A DNA stretch of 64,000 nt, from the IMG/VR virus record IMGVR_UViG_3300029702_000002; one strand, 5' to 3'. Below the pieces are notes generated by a model. That model was not told the origin of the DNA. It was given only the letters and a program-made list of their open reading frames with translations, and searched no databases. The position numbers were made by a program, and so were the translations under genes. Shown here piece after piece: positions 3,321 through 48,630 of the stretch. The stretch is from a virus. Taxonomy: Duplodnaviria > Heunggongvirae > Uroviricota > Caudoviricetes. Each line of letters starts with the position of its first letter. Within the stretch, counting starts at the first letter, position 1.

Positions 3321-3701
3321 CTAATTGCCGGATAAAATGGGGTGAGGTGCTTGCCAGTAGGCTCCACCGTTCCATGTGAATCCCATGCGAATAAGAGTGT
3401 TTATTGCGGCTTTGGTAGACTCAGATTCGACACTGGCTTTTCGAAACTCTTGAACCTCTTTCGCCAACTTGTATGTAATTGTGCTGGGGACGATTGCAGC
3501 CCAGCCTTTCTCATGACTGTTAATGACCATCTGGATGTGACCATCCAGAATAGGTTGATTAGGCATGTTATTGAAAATGTCTGCCTGTTTTTGAATGTGA
3601 AGAAAAAGCCTTGCCAGCTCCATTTGCTCACTACGAGACAAGGGATTATCAAGAGGGCTTTTTGCAAAAGCGGCTATACGCTGTGCGTCAATGCCAAACA
3701 T
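3321..3701 (-). CDS. hypothetical protein (126 aa)
   Basis: ORF track; operon context. Confidence 0.45.
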   Translation of the reverse strand: MFGIDAQRIAAFAKSPLDNPLSRSEQMELARLFLHIQKQADIFNNMPNQPILDGHIQMVINSHEKGWAAIVPSTITYKLAKEVQEFRKASVESESTKAAINTLIRMGFTWNGGAYWQAPHPILSGN

Positions 3702-4405
3702 CAGCGCACCTCACCATCTTTATGGCTGGAGCTAACTTCCGCCATTAAATGTCTTACGTAATCGACAAGAGAGCCACCTGGTGGAATCTGGCATTCCTCA
3801 ACTAACTGGAAGTAGATATCCGCTGCATTACGTGTATTACTACCCGCGCATATTCTTTCTTCCCGAAGTGCATGAAGCTCGTTGATCAAACGGTCACACT
3901 CTCCGTTACGCTGATCCACAACGGCCTCAAGCTCTGCGACGCGTTCACCTGGCGTCTTACCTTCTTTGCGTTGGATGGTAACGACGAAATCGCCAATTGC
4001 AGGGACGTTGTAATCCAGCTCAAGGTAGTTTTTGGCACCGCTGCGGACGAACTCACCCGCGAACATGGTGGCAAACATCGCAGAGGCCACTTCGCCGTTG
4101 AAAAGTGACTCCAGATCTAACGGAGTCCCGGCATCAAGAGCCTCTTTTGCTGTATCCATTGCATCCATGAACCGATCAAACTCATTGGCGCGCTTTTCCA
4201 GGTTTTTCCATTGCTCGCTCCAACGTTTGGCAACGAAGTCTATGAATGTTTTCGCGGATTCATCAAAATCCCCCTCAAACTTAACGATGCCTTTATCAAT
4301 AATGATCTGGCCTACCGCATCCTCTGCATAACCTTTCAATGTAAACTTGAAAGGAAAATCAGAATGGCCTGTGACGTTAAAATGCTCTAACTGGAGGTTG
4401 TTCAT
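3701..4405 (-). CDS. hypothetical protein (234 aa)
   Basis: ORF track; first gene of operon, promoter-type palindrome just upstream at 4448-4470. Confidence 0.5.
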   Translation of the reverse strand: MNNLQLEHFNVTGHSDFPFKFTLKGYAEDAVGQIIIDKGIVKFEGDFDESAKTFIDFVAKRWSEQWKNLEKRANEFDRFMDAMDTAKEALDAGTPLDLESLFNGEVASAMFATMFAGEFVRSGAKNYLELDYNVPAIGDFVVTIQRKEGKTPGERVAELEAVVDQRNGECDRLINELHALREERICAGSNTRNAADIYFQLVEECQIPPGGSLVDYVRHLMAEVSSSHKDGEVR

Positions 4406-6152: not shown

Positions 6153-6255
6153 AATTGCACCATTAAGAAAAGATTTGTTTAATGGTGCAATTATTTCAAA
6201 AATGAAAAGGTGCTAAATAGAAATTAACAGGCAATCCTTTAAATAAAGGTATTTG

Positions 6256-6927
6256 CTAATCATACTTTGAGGTATTTATAACCAGGATTTTGTTTGTATA
6301 AATCTTCTTAATATCCCATGTGACATTACCGGAATACCATTGACCGTTATATACTTGGTTTCCAGTTGCACCGGTCATAGTTACATAGACAGGTCTGTCG
6401 TAATCGGTTCGTCTATAGTTATAAACCCCAACCATAGCAGGCATTACCGCACACGGATACCCCACATCTATGGTAAATTGAGGGTCCGAAATAGTGATAA
6501 GTTTCGCATCAAGGGGCATCATCTCACCGTGATACACCATTGCGCCTGCGCTGTTATACATGGCAATGCCATAGCCAGAATGTGGTAACACCATATCAGA
6601 AAAAGCATAAACTGTTATTGTTCCGGGGCTACCATTTACCTGATGCAATCTGAGAGCATTGTATCCGTTACTATGCTCATGAATAAACATCATGTTCGCC
6701 TTATTACTGCTTTTTATGAAGAAAAAGCATGATTTGTTTGATGGGATTGATGTTTGAAAAACAGAACCTTTAGATGTAGACATTGTCCCTTTATTAATCA
6801 GATTTTGCGGAGTAAATTCTGGACTCATCCACAAACTTCCATCTGATTGAGTAATTGACATCCCGAACATAATTATCCCCAGTATGTGTATATGTAAGAA
6901 CCAAGCCCCGTATATAAATTTGACCAA
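6256..6927 (-). CDS. hypothetical protein (223 aa), possibly C-terminal part of a frameshifted gene
   Basis: ORF track; low-GC; overlaps upstream ORF 6873..7154 by 55 bp in another frame. Confidence 0.35.
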   Translation of the reverse strand: MVKFIYGAWFLHIHILGIIMFGMSITQSDGSLWMSPEFTPQNLINKGTMSTSKGSVFQTSIPSNKSCFFFIKSSNKANMMFIHEHSNGYNALRLHQVNGSPGTITVYAFSDMVLPHSGYGIAMYNSAGAMVYHGEMMPLDAKLITISDPQFTIDVGYPCAVMPAMVGVYNYRRTDYDRPVYVTMTGATGNQVYNGQWYSGNVTWDIKKIYTNKILVINTSKYD

Positions 6928-7154
6928 CTAACCGTATTTCCATTAATAGTAACTGTTGGAACAGGTAAATTAATGTAGTTGTCGTTGTTAAGAGGCATCA
7001 ATGACCACACGGCATGTAGCGATTTACCCGGTGGCGGATTGGAGTACGTCTTAGAGCCTGATGACGCAGTAAATCGATCAAGAAAAAAAATAGGAGTAAG
7101 GAAGCCAGTAACGTTAATTCCTTTATTGTTGTAAATCCCTGTACCGTATGCCAT
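6873..7154 (-). CDS. hypothetical protein (93 aa), possibly N-terminal part of a frameshifted gene
   Basis: ORF track; Gly/Asn/Thr-rich beta-type composition; same strand and contiguous with 6256..6927. Confidence 0.35.
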   Translation of the reverse strand: MAYGTGIYNNKGINVTGFLTPIFFLDRFTASSGSKTYSNPPPGKSLHAVWSLMPLNNDNYINLPVPTVTINGNTVSWSNLYTGLGSYIYTYWG

Positions 7155-7209
7155 TTTTCATCCTTGTTTTTTATCAACACAATATGGCCGATCATGCGGC
7201 CATATCAGA

Positions 7210-7779
7210 TCAATTAGAGCTTTGAAAGGCTTTGTGTGGCTGTGTTGCGAGGTTATGTCGATGGCTTAACTCACGCATCATGTCTTCAAGCCGACTCTTT
7301 GTGTCGTCGAGTTGGTCGGCCATTGCTCCCAAAAGCTGACGAACGGCCATCGGATCATCGCTGTTTAGTGATGGCATTTTATAACCCGCCTGAGAAGACA
7401 TAAGATTGAACGCAGACATCAACATCGTTAGAGAGGATTTAAGCCCAGCAATTTCACGATCTTTGCTGGCAATAATCGCCTCACTCTTGTTAGTGTCATC
7501 AGTTCGTTGAGTCTCGCTCACCATATCCAAAGTCGCCTGCAACTTATCAGCGCGCTCTTTTTCAGCAAGATAATGAACACCGAAATGATGTGCTAAAGCT
7601 ACAACCTGAGTTGGCTCTTCAAAGGTGGACTCAAAATTAAGTGCTGTAACCACTCTCTCAAATATGGAAACGTCTTCTATTCCTCGAAGAATGGCTAACA
7701 TTTTGACCAGTTCATTAGCATCCATTTCTTCGAATAAGGCGTTTTGTTCATCAGCTATCGCTTTGCATTTCTTGCACAT
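7210..7779 (-). CDS. hypothetical protein (189 aa)
   Basis: ORF track; conserved RBS/upstream motif at 7780-7815. Confidence 0.5.
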   Translation of the reverse strand: MCKKCKAIADEQNALFEEMDANELVKMLAILRGIEDVSIFERVVTALNFESTFEEPTQVVALAHHFGVHYLAEKERADKLQATLDMVSETQRTDDTNKSEAIIASKDREIAGLKSSLTMLMSAFNLMSSQAGYKMPSLNSDDPMAVRQLLGAMADQLDDTKSRLEDMMRELSHRHNLATQPHKAFQSSN

Positions 7780-11037: not shown

Positions 11038-11631
11038 CTAAGCAGCCTTCTTTGATGGTCTTTTTTTCCTGATCACATTCGCAGGATCATACCCTCCCAG
11101 ACTTTTCATGACGTCCAAAGGGATCTTGCTTATAGAGTGCCCAGCGTCCTGACAGAATCCTCGAAAAACAACGAGCATACTGCCACCTGGGTTGATGTTT
11201 ACTTCTACCTGACCCAGATTGACGTCAGGCTCGACAAACGCTACGCGGCCACCAGACAGAATAATCGTCTCATTCGCACACTCTGTTGCACGCTCATACC
11301 ACTTTGTATCTAGGGATTGAGGAATTAGCATCACTGTTGTAACTCCGCGAGCCTGCTCACGTATAGCCGCATCAATCCAGGGGGAGATTTTGGAGTAGGG
11401 TGGATTGAGGAAGGCAATTGTACCTGGCTGTCCCCATTCAGATTTCAAAGCATCACGCTCAACGCCTATGAAATTAGGCAGCTTTGCATTGTCCTTGTTG
11501 CAGGCAACGTCAACATCAAATGTCACTCCAAGATAACGTTGAATGGCAGAAAACAGCCAGTCAGGTGTTCTCCAGAGGTCACGAAGAGAGTTGTCGCGCT
11601 TTCGCTGTTTGATTTTTTCGGCTGCAATCAT
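11038..11631 (-). CDS. phage Dam-type DNA N6-adenine methyltransferase
   Basis: LWRTPDWLF ... FDVDVACN ... FLNPPY motifs. Confidence 0.8.
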   Translation of the reverse strand: MIAAEKIKQRKRDNSLRDLWRTPDWLFSAIQRYLGVTFDVDVACNKDNAKLPNFIGVERDALKSEWGQPGTIAFLNPPYSKISPWIDAAIREQARGVTTVMLIPQSLDTKWYERATECANETIILSGGRVAFVEPDVNLGQVEVNINPGGSMLVVFRGFCQDAGHSISKIPLDVMKSLGGYDPANVIRKKRPSKKAA

Positions 11632-26035: not shown

Positions 26036-26680
26036 TTACAGCGCGTCAGTGGGCTTTTTACGCGCTGCGTTTATGCTTATGACGCCAGCTTTTGGACGTG
26101 GGTCAACAAGGTTAAGCTCTTCTTCGCTGTGGTATTCGAGGTCGAACTCACGTTTTACATGTCTGATGTAGATTGCGGTGAGCAGGCTATCTTTGGTCAG
26201 AAAGTGTCCGTAGGATTTGCGGATCACTTCTTCTACCTTCTCGATTTTCTCACCACCCATACAGAGATGATTAAACCGGCTGTGTTTCCGCAACATTTCG
26301 TCTACTGGGCCTGAGTAAACCTTGTCTACTTTCCCAAAACGGATGATTTTTCCTGTGTCTGCGGATACGAGGCAAATCAGCTTGTCTGGTGATAAACGAT
26401 CTCGCCACGTCACACCTGAACGGAGTGTGTTGAAGTAGGGGGCATCCAATCCGATGATCGGTTTACGAAATGCGAGTAATGGAACGTACCTGATGCAACT
26501 GTTTAAATGAAAATTCACACCAGCCTTATCAAGTTTAATTCTGGTTTCGTAGATCGGGCACTTCGCCGCTATACCGCAGATGTCACAAAGCAACTTCTGC
26601 TTATTCAGGTTGGAATTTGATTCGATAGTGTAGGATCCGTCTTCAAGACGACGAACCCAGCGCGTGCGTTTTAGATCCAT
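26036..26680 (-). CDS. hypothetical Cys-rich protein (214 aa)
   Basis: ORF track; CDICG...C...H..C cluster near N-terminus. Confidence 0.5.
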   Translation of the reverse strand: MDLKRTRWVRRLEDGSYTIESNSNLNKQKLLCDICGIAAKCPIYETRIKLDKAGVNFHLNSCIRYVPLLAFRKPIIGLDAPYFNTLRSGVTWRDRLSPDKLICLVSADTGKIIRFGKVDKVYSGPVDEMLRKHSRFNHLCMGGEKIEKVEEVIRKSYGHFLTKDSLLTAIYIRHVKREFDLEYHSEEELNLVDPRPKAGVISINAARKKPTDAL

Positions 26681-26759
26681 ATGTCATTTTTCTGTGATTG
26701 TTAGCCGAGGCAACGATAACCCACCAGGTGCGCCGAAGGTAGTAAATGCCTGTTTTAAT

Positions 26760-26985
26760 TATTCACATATCCACAGGATAGATCCTAATAAAGAGATCCA
26801 TAGATAGATCCTTGTATAGATCAAATAAGATCCCCGATCGCTGTAAGCCGCGCCACGACTGGTCTGAAGCCATGTTCATGTATGCTGTCAGCGGTAATTG
26901 ATAGTCTGTCAGCGGTTCACCGTATGCTGCCAACTGTTTTTGGTATTCTGTCAGCGGCAAATCAAGTATGCTGTCAGCGGTTGAA
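26760..26985. promoter_or_regulatory. plasmid-type replication origin region: DnaA box, GATC cluster, five iterons
   Basis: ATATCCACA at 26767-26775; six GATC sites within 26782-26839; TATGCTGTCAGCGGT-like repeats at 26881-26981. Confidence 0.7.
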
Positions 26986-27000
26986 TGACAAAGGTGTCCA

Positions 27001-28096
27001 CATGTCCACAAAAAATAAAAAAGGTAAAAATAACAAAGAAGTAGAAGATAATCTCGACAACTTTGAAGAAGGTTCCCTTGAATTGTACACAGGGGAACTT
27101 GTCCCTAATAGCAACAATACAGTCCAACCAATTGCGTTGATGCGGCTGGGATTGTTCGTGCCCACGCTCAAGGGGACAAAATACAGCAAGCGTAACAAGC
27201 CAAATGAGATCGATGCTTCAAAGGAGCTTGTTCAGCTCGAAGTAGCCCGTTCTGAAGGCTATTCCGATATCAAGATAACCGGTCCTCGTCTCGACATGGA
27301 TCATGATTTCAAAACGTGGGTGGGCGTTGTGCGTTCGCTGGCAGAATACGGCGAACCTAACGGTCGTGTCGAGTTAAGCATCACGAAATTTGCGAAGTTT
27401 TGTGGCTATCCATCGTCACAGATCCGCAAAACACTCCGCGACCGGCTTACAAACAGTCTTTTGAAGATCATGCGTACAACTCTGTCTTTCCAGAGAACGT
27501 ATGAAGAAAAGAACGTCGACGGCTCTAACAAGATCTCGCTTCTGATGGTGCACCTCATCAATAGCGTGGACTACAACGAGCAGAAAGATACGGTGGTGTT
27601 CTATGCAGAACCGAAGCTGGCCGAACTATATCGCTTTGACCATAAGGTTCTTTTGCAGTTAAAGGTTATCAATAAGCTACCACGCAAAGAAACAGCACAG
27701 GCTCTGTACACCTTCATCGAAAGTCTTCCAACCAAGCCTGCGCCGGTGTCGCTTGCTCGATTGCGTGCGCGACTCAATTTGAGTAGCAGGAATGTCAGCT
27801 CGCAGAATCAGACTATACGCAACGGCTTAAAAGCTCTCCAAGATTTGGGTTATCTCGAATACAGCGAGATTAAACGAGGGCGGTCGATCTATATCCAGAT
27901 TCACAGCCGCAATCCAAAACTCAAAGTCGCACCGCCAAAACCTGAAGACATCGAACCCAAAAAACTAGATGAGAAAGCTGGGGAAATTGATGCCAAACAG
28001 AACATTATCAACAAGATAACCGAACTTTCGCAGAATTTGACGCCTGAAAATATCAAGATGATTGAGATCCTTTCCAATAGTCTCAAACTGCTTTGA
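27001..28096 (+). CDS. repA: iteron-binding plasmid replication initiator RepA; start moved to ATG at 27001
   Basis: ORF 26882..28096 trimmed because its 5' extension overlaps the iterons; flanked by iteron arrays; recalled resemblance to P1/RepFIB RepA (NSNNTVQP..ALMRLG). Confidence 0.8.
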
Positions 28097-28628
28097 TATG
28101 CTGTCAGCGGTGAAATGTATGCTATCAGCGGCTATTTTTCTGAAAAGTATGCTGTGAACGGTTAAAGATATGCTACCAGCGGTATAGTGAGATGAACGTA
28201 TGCTGTGGGCGGTAAATCATCTATCACCACTCAATGCTCTGTCATACCTCCCCAGTGGTTACTAACCTCGAAGAGTGCATTCCATATAGGTTTGCGCTCA
28301 CTAACATTCTATTGCTATTGCGCTGATTGCTTGTAGTGAAAGGCATTTATTGCCTGCTGCTCCCTGATAGAACGTATGCTGTCAGCGGTGTTTTATTGAG
28401 GAATTTTTGTTTGGATATGCTATCAGCGGTAATTAATGGTATATGTCAGACCTTCGTATGCTGCCAGCGGTAATTTTGTTCTGGTTATACCCATACCGGT
28501 ACACATTATTCATGCAATGTCTTAAGTATGCTGTCAGCGGTAAAAAATCGAGTAAAGTATGCTGTGAGCGGTGAGATAGACTCTCGATATGCTATCAGCG
28601 GTAGTTGATTGTGTATGCTGTCAGCGGT
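28096..28628. repeat. downstream iteron array, 12 copies in three clusters (copy-control type)
   Basis: Copies begin at 28096, 28117, 28147, 28168, 28199, 28374, 28415, 28457, 28526, 28557, 28587, 28613. Confidence 0.85.
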
Positions 28629-28675
28629 GACGACTATGAAATATGACTGCGGAACGTGCCGCAGTCAGTTTGCAT

Positions 28676-28888
28676 TTAGTGTATTTTCTTTAACAGACCC
28701 CAAAGTGTTCCGGCTTTTGTAGTCAGTTTTCCTGTTTCTGGATCGTACATACGCCATTCACGCCGCTGGTGGACGATATACCCATCTTCACGTTCCAGAC
28801 GCTCAAGAATGCCAGGCTGCTTGAAACCCTTAGCACGCCAGTAGCCGCTTGTTTTCTCGATTTCCAGACCTGCCAGTGTTAATGCCAT
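28676..28888 (-). CDS. hypothetical protein (70 aa)
   Basis: ORF track. Confidence 0.4.
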   Translation of the reverse strand: MALTLAGLEIEKTSGYWRAKGFKQPGILERLEREDGYIVHQRREWRMYDPETGKLTTKAGTLWGLLKKIH

Positions 28889-29223
28889 TATCCAACCTCC
28901 TTGCAGTCATCGAAAAGGTAGCTTTGCTGAGAAGCGTGAACACCATAGAAGCCCTTGTATTTGTTGTATACGAAGTGGTCTTCTCCGACGCCGGTTAATT
29001 TGCCATTACGATTTGTGAGATATGGGGATGACAACACTCGATCGTCACGCACAACATAGAACTGGTCGCCGCTGTCTACGACCATCGCTCCATATGGTGC
29101 TTTTATGACGTCGGTAAGAGCGCCATTCTTAACGTCGGCTACAGACATTTCACACTGATAAACAGTGGTGTCGGCCACAACGATCGAAGAAAGGAACAAC
29201 AGCGCGAATGGGATGGCCTTCAT
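28888..29223 (-). CDS. secreted protein with signal peptide (111 aa)
   Basis: N-terminal MKAIPFALLFLSSIVVA signal-peptide-like segment. Confidence 0.5.
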   Translation of the reverse strand: MKAIPFALLFLSSIVVADTTVYQCEMSVADVKNGALTDVIKAPYGAMVVDSGDQFYVVRDDRVLSSPYLTNRNGKLTGVGEDHFVYNKYKGFYGVHASQQSYLFDDCKEVG

Positions 29224-48330: not shown

Positions 48331-48417
48331 TGGCGGAGAGTAATGGAATCGAACCATCATCGCTTGCGCAATGGGACGGTTTTCAAGACCGCTTGAGCAC
48401 CATGCTCCCTACTCTCC
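48331..48417 (-). tRNA. tRNA-Ser (anticodon UGA), class II with long variable arm
   Basis: Manual fold: acceptor GGAGAGT/ACTCTCC, anticodon loop CUUGAAA, long variable arm, T-loop TTCGATT, encoded CCA. Confidence 0.75.
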
Positions 48418-48630
48418 AATTGTTGTGGTGCCGGGTGCTTCCCGGTGTCCTTTGGCTGGTTATCCACCGTGGACGGAGCCAATAGTCATCACAAAGGATC
48501 AATATAACCATTTCCCCGCGTGCGCTTAGCCGCATTCACCACAACGAAAAGAGCACTGTATGACGTTTGCACGGACTTACGCTTCAAACAGGGCAGTCTC
48601 GGCGGTTCTCAATGCTCTTTCCTGTTGTGT

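Follow-up and report, generated by a model that had tools for sequence, protein, structure and literature searches.

Phage P1 encodes its own Dam methylase and uses a separate origin, with repL, for lytic replication. RepFIB replicons, which are found in F, P307 and the IncFIB virulence and resistance plasmids, carry iterons on both sides of repA. In the oriR-repA-incA replicon of P1 (IncY; K02380, AF234172), DnaA boxes are followed by GATC heptamers, a G+C-rich spacer, five direct iterons spaced by about 21 bp, the repA gene and a control array that begins at the repA stop. Iteron control in general proceeds through DnaK/DnaJ monomerisation, titration and handcuffing (PMC6090056), and repL serves as a marker of P1 (10.1101/2025.09.12.675607).

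Several related replicons have been described in enterobacterial phage-plasmids. The RepA of pECOH89 was reported to be 100% identical to that of p09EL50 (PMC3999498), the pECOH89 plasmid group was labelled RepFIB/Rep3 (PMC4270462), and the SSU5 supercommunity was typed as IncFIB (PMC7969092; 10.1101/2025.09.12.675607). An 'IncpKPHS1' group of Klebsiella phage-plasmids, including phage ST13-OXA48phi12.3, was published as having only four iterons after repA, without any recognised domain in RepA (PMC6735626). Cyrano, a sister SSU5-like element, has a copy number of about 5.5 per cell, and ciprofloxacin induces it (PMC9928086). No origin or iteron map was found in the published descriptions of pECOH89 and p09EL50.

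The window analysed here is a stretch of phage-like DNA of 64,000 nucleotides, for which an original prediction had proposed a P1/F-type iteron replicon and maintenance as a plasmid prophage. We find that the region 26759-28667 is, with high probability, the low-copy maintenance replicon that a pECOH89/p09EL50-type phage-plasmid of the SSU5 supergroup carries, and a diverged homolog of P1 oriR-repA-incA. The predicted layout of origin, initiator and copy control was borne out: the order is P1-like, and RepA is a true homolog of the iteron-binding P1 RepA. The observation is correct yet not new, because the replicon is already in PMC3999498, PMC4270462 and PMC7969092; both the replicon and the plasmid-prophage lifestyle are known from the literature and from typing schemes, and are real but ordinary. 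New at the annotation level are the full iteron map and the finding that the iteron is common to Klebsiella pKPHS1-type elements.

Results

The element and its distribution

The window corresponds to the E. coli plasmid pRHB14-C22_3 (CP057798.1, 108,954 bp, circular), with 2 mismatches over 64 kb. Its genes for terminase, portal, capsid, tape-measure and tail-fiber proteins, together with rep, ParA and toxin-antitoxin genes, make this record an SSU5-supergroup phage-plasmid, a kind of circular element of about 100-120 kb in which siphovirus structural genes are combined with plasmid rep/par; the backbone of P1, in contrast, is that of a myovirus. The surroundings of repA are syntenic with SSU5, and the annotation of the complete 108,954-bp record contains no second Rep gene.

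Among 5,426 complete E. coli genomes, 120 carry the replicon, with 186 of 186 places on plasmids and 0 on chromosomes. The predicted plasmid prophage is thus in agreement with the carriers, which are phage-plasmids found only extrachromosomally in these 120 E. coli genomes. Among the carriers in PLSDB, 136 of 143 are non-mobilizable, and their size is mostly about 110 kb. Near-identical replicons are also present in records deposited as phages, namely PhiR41_1 (host given as MG1655) and CMS-2020a; a literature search found no publication describing phage PhiR41_1.

Essentially the same replicon is carried by pECOH89 and p09EL50. The RepA of the window and that of p09EL50 are identical at 362 of 364 positions, the DNA of the 2-kb module is 98.9-99.9% identical within this group, and the carriers are alike (non-mobilizable, about 110 kb). 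The PlasmidFinder type of the pECOH89 / p09EL50 replicon is 'IncFIB(H89-PhagePlasmid)', a label that 25 papers use; the MOB-suite name of the pECOH89-type replicon is rep_cluster_488.

The RepA initiator

27002..28096, + strand: repA, 364 aa plus stop; P1 RepA / RepFIB family, Rep3 superfamily

The RepA-like open reading frame had been predicted at 27001..28096. The frame itself stands, as 364 residues of a P1 RepA homolog, while its start is shifted to the ATG at 27002; the start given by PGAP falls inside the first iteron. BLASTP aligns the protein with phage P1 RepA over 278 aa at 46% identity (E 4e-86), spanning residues 20-284 of the 286 of P1 RepA, and tblastn gives 43.5% (E 2e-64); similarity to an iteron-binding initiator is therefore evident. 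The profile search against Rep families that had been proposed as a check also gave a match, to Pfam Rep3_N (E 3.9e-9), with 37.5 bits against a gathering cut-off of 22.4. All 120 of the 120 homologs among the matches listed carry PF01051, as do all the RepB/RepA proteins of Klebsiella and Salmonella plasmids that are about 50% identical; phage-borne matches named 'RepFIB replication protein A' are 41% identical. No NCBIfam match was obtained for RepA or for the neighbouring genes.

The AF2 model of RepA consists of a WH1-WH2 core at about residues 65-305 (pLDDT about 80-90), a linker and a C-terminal helical hairpin at 327-363. When it was compared with the PDB using Foldseek, the best 15 matches were all Rep-type initiators (E 6e-7 to 1e-2), among them RctB domains 2-3, RepE, pi, the WH1 domains of MSBI1.176 and of pPS10 RepA, and a Rep-DUE complex. 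The model suggests a two-winged-helix fold like that of RepE and pi, with TM-scores that are moderate (0.37-0.53 per target, normalised by target length). The WH1-WH2 fold is shared with F RepE, R6K pi, pPS10 RepA and V. cholerae RctB domains 2-3 (Foldseek probability 0.97-1.00), whereas no sequence similarity to these four proteins was detectable by phmmer or profile. Searching the PDB sequences by phmmer with the single sequence and with a four-sequence profile returned no Rep protein, RepE being absent at E up to 10; the link between RepA and the solved Rep structures is consequently one of fold.

P1 RepA is shorter than the protein described here, which has about 55 extra residues in its tail. 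We considered this C-terminal tail as a phage-plasmid-specific feature and rejected the idea: RepFIB-family proteins commonly have the tail, with P1 RepA as the short outlier.

The origin

26759..26775, + strand: tandem DnaA boxes TTATTCACA (26759-26767) and ATATCCACA (26767-26775), with a 1-nt overlap; left edge of the origin
26779..26840, + strand: GATC (Dam) block of six sites, with five (A/T)AGATC(C/A) heptamers and a terminal CGATCG; 63% A+T
26841..26880, + strand: G+C-rich spacer (G+C content 58%) with GCCGCGCCACG, a sequence conserved in both P1 and Klebsiella
26880..26981, + strand: five direct origin iterons, the equivalent of P1 incC, starting at 26881, 26902, 26923, 26944 and 26967
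26898..26928, + strand: candidate repA promoter TTGATA-19 nt-TATGCT, overlapping iterons 1-3; weak, tentative
26990..27010, + strand: ribosome-binding site AAAGG (26990-26994) and DnaA-box-like 9-mers GTGTCCACA / ATGTCCACA (26994-27010), the pair spanning the repA ATG

One DnaA box had been predicted, at 26767-26775, and ATATCCACA is indeed located there; the adjoining TTATTCACA at 26759-26767, an exact fit to TTATNCACA, had been missed and gives a tandem arrangement like that of P1. In the alignment, both boxes fall on the DnaA binding site annotated in P1 (K02380 729-746), and in the Klebsiella relatives the same place is taken by TTATCCACTTATCCAC as DnaA boxes. Since the exact DnaA box is not enriched by count (2 found against 2.84 expected in the whole window), the weight given to the boxes derives from their position and from the alignment to the annotated P1 site.

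The six GATC sites expected in about 60 bp were found within 59 bp (26781, 26795, 26807, 26819, 26829 and 26836), and they form the densest 70-bp GATC cluster of the window, the mean of which is 4.06 per kb. P1 has five such sites against the six here, and each site is positionally homologous to an annotated P1 Dam site. By homology with P1, the block is the putative region of methylation-dependent opening and SeqA sequestration.

The spacing of the origin iterons, 21/21/21/23 or about two helical turns, is close to that of P1 incC, where the starts are 21-22 bp apart, and recurs unchanged in the Klebsiella and PhiR41_1 relatives; the five-iteron geometry is invariant among relatives whose RepA is 85-99% identical. 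The origin core, comprising the DnaA boxes, the GATC heptamers and the G+C-rich spacer, is 77% identical to the experimentally mapped P1 oriR core over 118 bp (E 2.3e-18), and the DnaA boxes, every GATC heptamer and the spacer are all in register with annotated features of the P1 records. The iteron itself differs: the P1 iteron is the 19-mer GATGTGTGCTGGAGGGAAA, the unit here is the 16-nt core (G/A)TATGCTGTCAGCGGT, the two consensus sequences show no resemblance, and a search of P1 for the iteron of the window gave no origin-type match.

These data bear on the designation "P1/F-type". An F-plasmid replicon of the oriS/RepE type (IncFIA) has the same generic layout, with DnaA boxes, iterons, rep and further iterons, and its RepE shares the fold of RepA; but RepE was not matched at E up to 10 by phmmer or profile among the PDB sequences, while P1 RepA reaches 46% identity and the DNA of the origin core aligns with P1, and we regard an IncFIA assignment as extremely improbable. 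The P1 half of the designation accordingly holds for both RepA and origin DNA, and the F half does not, RepE being reached by fold and not by sequence. P1-type is preferred because P1 oriR is a homolog of the origin core at the nucleotide level and F RepE is related by fold only. The replicon is, more exactly, of the P1-oriR / RepFIB type: the RepFIB replicons have the RepA family in common with it, but RepFIB plasmids differ in their iterons and incompatibility group and are not phage-borne. It belongs to the same replicon family as P1 and would fall outside the IncY incompatibility group of P1, the iteron sequence being unlike that of P1.

We likewise attach practically no credence to the possibility that the module is an inactive relic in an element that persists by other means. 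The repA frame is intact, the phasing of the five iterons is kept across E. coli and Klebsiella, repA is the sole annotated Rep gene of a circular plasmid and the carriers are always extrachromosomal; nothing was found in favour of a relic.

A stricter sigma-70 scan upstream of repA gave no + strand promoter, and TTGATA-19-TATGCT is the sole candidate from a relaxed scan, with 9/12 matches and a 19-nt spacer, and lacks conservation in Klebsiella. The annotated promoter of P1 scores 8/12 under the same rule. As the promoter is not convincingly located, autorepression of repA is proposed by analogy. Further downstream, GTGTCCACA and ATGTCCACA each have 2 mismatches to the DnaA box, the stretch 26990-27010 is nearly invariant in the Klebsiella relative, and the equivalent P1 leader carries CTATCCACA. 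The pair is possibly a right-hand DnaA site, like the one on the right side of P1.

The downstream iteron array and its probable role in control

28097..28213, + strand: control-array cluster 1, five direct iterons, beginning at the base after the repA stop
28252..28267, + strand: non-iteron motif CCAGTGGTTACTAACC, within the 161-bp gap between clusters 1 and 2
28375..28471, + strand: control-array cluster 2, with three direct iterons at intervals of 41 bp
28527..28628, + strand: control-array cluster 3, with four direct iterons; phage PhiR41_1 lacks the last three
28644..28667, no strand assigned: G+C-rich hairpin with a 9-bp stem, terminator-like on both strands; right boundary of the replicon

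Iterons were sought in the whole window with the pattern TATGCTGTCAGCGGT and up to 3 mismatches, using 100 shuffles as control. This count of the 15-mer, which had also been proposed as a check, gave 19 matches against 1.57 expected, and none of the 100 shuffles reached 19. The replicon region holds 17 of the 19 matches, all on the + strand, with 5 upstream of repA and 5+3+4 downstream, which is the predicted arrangement of five upstream iterons and twelve downstream ones in three clusters. The informative unit is the 16-nt core (G/A)TATGCTGTCAGCGGT.

The incA array of P1 likewise begins at the repA stop, but it has 9 control iterons, three direct and the rest inverted, against 12 here, all direct and in three clusters. 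Counted by orientation, 12 of 12 control iterons are direct here, and P1 incA has 3 direct and 5-6 inverted, the sixth inverted copy being annotated in the P1 record and too diverged for the iteron scan. This contrast implies that the geometry of pairing may differ. Among relatives with RepA 85-99% identical the array ranges from 9 to 12 copies.

The motif CCAGTGGTTACTAACC is also present close to the control iterons in the replicons of Klebsiella, SSU5 and PhiR41_1, and is absent from P1. It was considered as a repeated centromere and rejected, because it is single-copy in the window. The hairpin at 28644-28667 faces a convergent gene (28676-28888, - strand). With a permissive threshold, Rfam gave no RNA family in 26500-28900, and there is no evidence of antisense-RNA control.

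The all-direct orientation, unlike P1 incA, the spread of three clusters over 530 bp, the conserved non-iteron motif that separates clusters 1 and 2, and the fact that no obvious centromere repeats were seen upstream of parA could also suit a function that is not mainly incA-like, such as a second origin, a pairing or partition site, or a landing pad for a factor using the inter-cluster motif. We consider this very unlikely. Like incA, the array starts exactly at the repA stop; neither DnaA boxes nor a GATC cluster lie beside the downstream clusters, and close relatives keep the plasmid state with 9-12 copies; such variation without plasmid loss fits a dispensable, tunable regulator. The downstream clusters are hence treated below as an incA-like control array.

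Klebsiella and SSU5 relatives

The Klebsiella pKPHS1-type elements have a RepA that is 85-87% identical and an iteron core that is identical. They are also alike in their five origin iterons (21/21/21/23), tandem DnaA boxes, GATC block and all-direct control array, and differ in their control iterons, which number 9 and form two clusters, against 12 in three here. The iteron count and the absent RepA domain published for this group (PMC6735626) are corrected by these 9 control iterons and by the Rep3_N match of RepA described above.

SSU5, pHCM2 and pLF82 (Cyrano) share the backbone and the neighbouring genes. Their RepA, which has the C-terminal tail, is 48% identical, and the origin core is homologous (77% over 137 bp), but the iteron is unrelated (approximately AACCACTGTAGAGAG) and the control array is of mixed orientation. 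In SSU5 the origin core is apparently duplicated. A heteroresistance preprint (10.64898/2026.08.19.745698) was set aside as not relevant; it concerns an IncFII-like CopA/RepA phage-plasmid family, which is unrelated.

Other maintenance and replication genes

11038..11631, - strand: Dam-family N6-adenine methyltransferase (PF05869, E 2.5e-38), also annotated in the plasmid record
59243..59602, - strand: small partner ORF of ParA, 119 aa; partition operon 59243..60270
59602..60270, - strand: ParA-type ATPase, 222 aa, with MipZ/AAA_31/CbiA/ParA domains; phrog_164 (ParA-like partition protein), E 4e-51
60550..60858, + strand: TacA antitoxin (TacA1, E 8.6e-26)
60866..61387, + strand: GNAT acetyltransferase toxin with GNAT domains, forming a TacAT-type pair with TacA

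The par and toxin-antitoxin genes expected at 59.2-61.4 kb were identified as a ParA-type ATPase, its partner ORF and a TacA/GNAT pair. The partition operon is 31 kb away from the replicon and contains a small type of ParA, whereas P1 has an adjacent type Ia parAB. A repeat search upstream of parA revealed no obvious centromere-like repeats. Like P1, the element is a phage-plasmid with a Dam-type methylase, and this enzyme possibly supplies the methylation of the origin GATC sites in trans.

The element also has replisome genes of its own (dnaE, primase, DnaB-like helicase/AAA ATPase, ligase and RNase H), and no separate lytic origin was identified in this analysis. Both points would fit a RepA/iteron module that acts as the lytic (vegetative) origin, alone or in addition to prophage-plasmid maintenance. 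We judge this quite unlikely, given that the module is homologous to oriR, the plasmid origin of P1, and that a large negative-control iteron array typifies low-copy control and is unexpected for runaway replication.

Discussion

A mechanism for this low-copy maintenance replicon may be proposed by analogy with P1 and other iteron replicons. RepA monomers would occupy the five evenly phased origin iterons, with host DnaA on the left-edge tandem boxes and perhaps on the weaker pair at the repA start as well. The Dam-methylated block of GATC heptamers would be opened for helicase loading and, while hemimethylated, sequestered by SeqA. RepA bound at the origin would shut down its own promoter, and the twelve downstream iterons would titrate RepA and handcuff the origin iterons, resulting in a low copy number. 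The distant ParA operon and the TacAT module would secure inheritance.

A broader reading sees a P1-oriR derivative in which the host-factor core was kept and the RepA-iteron specificity was swapped, with the all-direct array of 9-12 copies, the motif AGTGGTTACTAAC and the two-helix RepA tail forming an extra regulatory layer. As a whole we hold it to be unlikely; if it were true, a second factor or a phage-encoded replisome partner could couple copy number to the lysis-lysogeny state.

E. coli, Klebsiella and Salmonella commonly harbour SSU5-group phage-plasmids, which can carry resistance genes, e.g. blaCTX-M-15 on pECOH89. An exact map of the replicon is useful for annotation, considering where PGAP places the RepA start, and also serves replicon typing, prediction of incompatibility, and the building of mini-replicons and curing tools. 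As the iteron is identical in the Klebsiella pKPHS1-type elements, incompatibility is expected with that group, and as it is unlike the iterons of P1 and SSU5, compatibility is expected with P1 (IncY) and with the SSU5/pHCM2/pLF82 types. The E. coli pECOH89 and Klebsiella pKPHS1 groups are therefore predicted to be mutually exclusive, and both to coexist with P1 and the SSU5/pHCM2 types. No new biological principle is involved; the comparison of sequences suggests a clear case of iteron replicons evolving by modules: the host-factor core would have been conserved and the specificity module replaced.

Organisation of the replicon

The near-consensus DnaA box and the cluster of six GATC sites named in the original prediction are both present as described, and the module that contains them could be mapped as follows (positions in the window).

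26759-26767: DnaA box TTATTCACA, an exact fit to TTATNCACA
26767-26775: DnaA box ATATCCACA, the one originally predicted
26781-26839: six GATC sites
starts 26881, 26902, 26923, 26944 and 26967, + strand: five origin iterons, spacing 21/21/21/23
26994-27010: weaker DnaA-box pair GTGTCCACA and ATGTCCACA, across the repA start codon
27002-28096, + strand: repA, 364 aa; its ATG (27002) lies seven bases past an AAAGG ribosome-binding site
28097-28213, + strand: control cluster 1, five iterons (15-mer scan)
28252-28267: motif CCAGTGGTTACTAACC, no iteron, single copy in the window
28375-28471, + strand: control cluster 2, three iterons (15-mer scan)
28527-28628, + strand: control cluster 3, four iterons (15-mer scan)
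28644-28667: hairpin with a 9-bp stem that ends the module and faces a convergent gene

Since TTATTCACA directly precedes ATATCCACA and overlaps it by one base, the DnaA site is a tandem pair. The exact box is not enriched on its own in the window (2 seen, 2.84 expected), and its significance rests on context. The GATC sites form the densest 70-bp cluster of the window, which averages 4.06 GATC/kb, and the heptamer block that carries them is 63% A+T. With at most 3 mismatches allowed, the 64-kb window contains 19 copies of the 15-mer TATGCTGTCAGCGGT against 1.57 expected from dinucleotide shuffles, and 0 of 100 shuffles reached 19. All but two of these copies (17 of 19) lie inside 26881-28628, on the + strand throughout, with five before the open reading frame and 12 in three clusters after it, as had been proposed. 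An information profile of the 17 copies gave a core of 16 nt, (G/A)TATGCTGTCAGCGGT, with flanks that are A/T-biased and otherwise uninformative.

The initiator RepA

The predicted RepA-like frame of 364 aa ending at 28096 holds, except that its start had been placed one base too early, at 27001. The protein passes the gathering threshold of Pfam Rep3_N (WH1; E 3.9e-9, 37.5 bits vs 22.4), and it shares 46% identity with RepA of phage P1 across residues 20-284 of the 286 in P1 (E 4e-86), a match also found by tblastn; the profile search proposed earlier thus supports an initiator. Because neither phmmer nor profile searches reached a solved Rep structure, RepA was modelled from a 35-sequence alignment. 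In the model the core (about residues 65-305) has a pLDDT of about 80-90, and the termini are disordered, the one exception being a hairpin of helices at residues 327-363. Every top PDB fold match is a Rep-type initiator: V. cholerae RctB domains 2-3, F RepE, a Rep-DUE complex, R6K pi and the pPS10 RepA WH1 domain. The tail of about 55 residues consists of a proline/acidic linker that leads into a two-helix hairpin; C-terminal tails of this kind are widespread in the RepFIB family, P1 RepA being a short outlier. Promoter scans upstream of repA pinned down no position.

In plasmid records PGAP annotates a RepA of 404 aa with its ATG within iteron 1 (window 26882-28096; 6183-7397 and 483-1697 in the plasmid records L001 and L010), and its additional 40 residues (MLSAVIDSLSAVHRMLP...) are iteron sequence read as protein. 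The start at 27002 has a ribosome-binding site, is used in the record of phage PhiR41_1 and gives the form seen in several database homologs; the PGAP start is probably set too far upstream. The family is also labelled 'replication helicase' in PHROG 775 and several RefSeq phage records, including the P1 records NC_005856 and NC_050152. This is a propagated misannotation: members of the family have winged-helix domains and bind iterons as initiators; they are not helicases.

Relationship to the P1 origin

The replicon was compared with two GenBank records of P1 (K02380 and AF234172), in which the DnaA site, Dam sites, incC iterons 10-14, PrepA and incA iterons 1-9 have been mapped experimentally. 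Base-for-base alignment of the origin core to P1 oriR takes in the tandem DnaA boxes, every GATC heptamer, the terminal (C/T)GATCG and the G+C-rich spacer GCCGCGCCACG (77% pairwise identity, 118 bp, E 2.3e-18). Homology ends where the iterons start, and the P1 19-mer GATGTGTGCTGGAGGGAAA is unrelated to the iteron core of the window. Here and in P1 alike, the repA stop codon marks the beginning of the control array. The replicon therefore belongs to the P1 oriR / RepFIB lineage, with the host-factor core conserved and the RepA-iteron specificity module replaced. P1 differs in having five GATC sites rather than six (one heptamer, intact here, has decayed to AGGTCC) and 14 iterons rather than 17, and in lacking both the RepA tail and CCAGTGGTTACTAACC, which lies here between control clusters 1 and 2. 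In P1 parAB is adjacent, whereas the small ParA type found here is 31 kb away. The incA iterons of P1 are mostly inverted whereas the control iterons here are all direct, and therefore the pairing geometry may differ.

Of the 'P1/F-type' designation in the original prediction, the P1 part stands on RepA (46%) and the origin core (77%); the F part does not, as an F RepE-type assignment failed on sequence, RepE being unreached by phmmer and profile searches. The observation is thus confirmed and its interpretation supported, 'P1-type' being the more exact term.

In Salmonella phage SSU5 (JQ965645) the gene order around repA is the same as in the window. The origin core there is seemingly duplicated in tandem (2258-2385 and about 2640-2735), with iterons after each copy, and in the copy nearer repA most GATC sites have decayed to GAACC or GACCC. 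Adjoining the origin of the window is a conserved divergent ORF of 214 aa (26036-26680, - strand; phrog_2105), syntenic in SSU5 (SSU5_070), Klebsiella and PhiR41_1, for which no Pfam match was found.

Variation of the control array

Among near-identical replicons the five-iteron origin is unchanged in the window, PhiR41_1 and the Klebsiella relative, whereas the control array has 12 iterons here and 9 in each of the other two. PhiR41_1 (3631-4075 vs window 28097-28628) is without the last three, giving 5+9 vs 5+12. Such size changes probably arise by recombination among the repeats and may serve to adjust copy number; the variability fits a tunable regulator, although this fit is correlative only. 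It is possible, but less economical, that the downstream clusters serve a function other than copy control. CCAGTGGTTACTAACC is kept beside the control iterons in the Klebsiella (two copies), SSU5 and PhiR41_1 replicons. Within the control arrays of related phage records, the small CDSs labelled 'hypothetical protein' are iteron-repeat ORFs (window 28443-28574; PhiR41_1 3977-4093; 2710-2838 in the related phage record L006) and probably spurious.

Carrier element and distribution

The window differs by 2 mismatches in 64,000 bases from the E. coli RHB14-C22 plasmid pRHB14-C22_3 (CP057798.1; 108,954 bp, circular), window position 1 being record position 81954. Genes for terminase, portal, major capsid, tape-measure and tail-fiber proteins lie on this plasmid, together with dnaE, primase, ligase, RNase H, nrdAB, thyA, a Dam-family methylase and an integrase-family recombinase; only one Rep gene is annotated in the complete record. 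The par and toxin-antitoxin genes predicted at 59.2-61.4 kb were found, and the methylase lies within the window.

11038-11631, - strand: Dam-family N6-adenine methyltransferase, phage type (PF05869, E 2.5e-38)
59243-60270, - strand: ParA-type ATPase and small partner, confirmed by homology
60550-61387, + strand: TacA/GNAT toxin-antitoxin pair, confirmed by homology

A cluster of three tRNAs, Ser(tga), Thr(tgt) and Asn(gtt), lies at 48331-48783 (- strand); the pECOH89 paper gave Thr and Asn only (PMC3999498). Just outside the window, the plasmid carries the chromosomal-type housekeeping genes metG (methionine-tRNA ligase) and apbC, an unusual cargo (CP057798.1 77195-80486; 27195-30486 in our numbering of L008, the same record).

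The 1.9-kb replicon was found in 120 of 5,426 complete E. coli genomes, with all 186 matching places on plasmids, none on chromosomes, and one carrier record per genome. It is present in 143 PLSDB plasmids (136 non-mobilizable) and in three records deposited as phages. The conservation of the five-iteron origin and the exclusive carriage on plasmids contradict the notion that the replicon is a relic. The proposed maintenance as a plasmid prophage is supported by phage structural genes and Rep, ParA and toxin-antitoxin genes on one circular plasmid record, and by a replicon only ever found on plasmids. No complete E. coli genome had two plasmids bearing it (120 carrier records in 120 genomes), which fits incompatibility, though only weakly, since chance at 2.2% prevalence would give no more than about 2.6 co-occurrences.

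The replicon itself has been described before: it is the RepFIB-family replicon of pECOH89/p09EL50 type, carried by SSU5-supergroup phage-plasmids. The window RepA is identical to that of p09EL50 at 362 of 364 positions. We take pECOH89 to be the reference of the type label 'IncFIB(H89-PhagePlasmid)', which is routinely used (25 papers). According to Falgenhauer et al., p09EL50 RepA shares 100% identity with its counterpart on the phage-like plasmid pECOH89 and 48% with the pLF82 protein (PMC3999498). For this plasmid group, Lanza et al. had named the initiator RepFIB (Rep3 superfamily) and suggested that its members live as plasmid prophages in the manner of P1 (PMC4270462). Pfeifer et al. 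assigned the elements to the SSU5 supercommunity, mostly IncFIB by PlasmidFinder (PMC7969092), and SSU5 IncFIB rep genes are included in typing tools (2025 preprint, 10.1101/2025.09.12.675607). The sister element Cyrano (pLF82) is kept at some 5.5 copies in each cell, and ciprofloxacin induces it (PMC9928086). A base-level map of a pECOH89-type origin was not found in the literature, the sole iteron description being that of the Klebsiella 'IncpKPHS1' cousins, where four iterons were counted after repA and no domain was recognised in RepA (PMC6735626). On reanalysis, these relatives have 5 + 9 iterons that share the core and the 21/21/21/23 origin spacing of the window; their RepA is 85-87% identical to that of the window, in which Rep3_N was found.

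Proposed mechanism

By analogy with P1, whose specific features were taken from the annotated records, and with other iteron replicons (general principles reviewed in PMC6090056), a mechanism may be proposed. DnaK/DnaJ/GrpE would turn RepA dimers into monomers, which would fill the five phased origin iterons, while DnaA would occupy the left tandem boxes and perhaps also the weaker pair across the repA start codon; the GATC-heptamer block between, fully methylated, would then be opened for helicase loading. After firing, the hemimethylated block would be sequestered by SeqA. RepA on the origin iterons would repress repA transcription, and the 12 downstream iterons would titrate RepA and pair with the origin iterons ('handcuffing'), limiting copy number. 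Use as a lytic origin is unlikely, since the module is homologous to oriR and has a large array for negative control. For the plasmid origin proposed here, segregational stability would come from the ParA operon and the TacAT module.

The present analysis adds a full feature map, evidence that the origin core and P1 oriR are homologous in nucleotide sequence, an iteron core that the window has in common with Klebsiella pKPHS1-type elements and several annotation corrections. The common iteron core predicts a common incompatibility group. The element's own predicted Dam-family methylase is relevant to an origin expected to rely on its GATC cluster, and could free origin methylation from the host.
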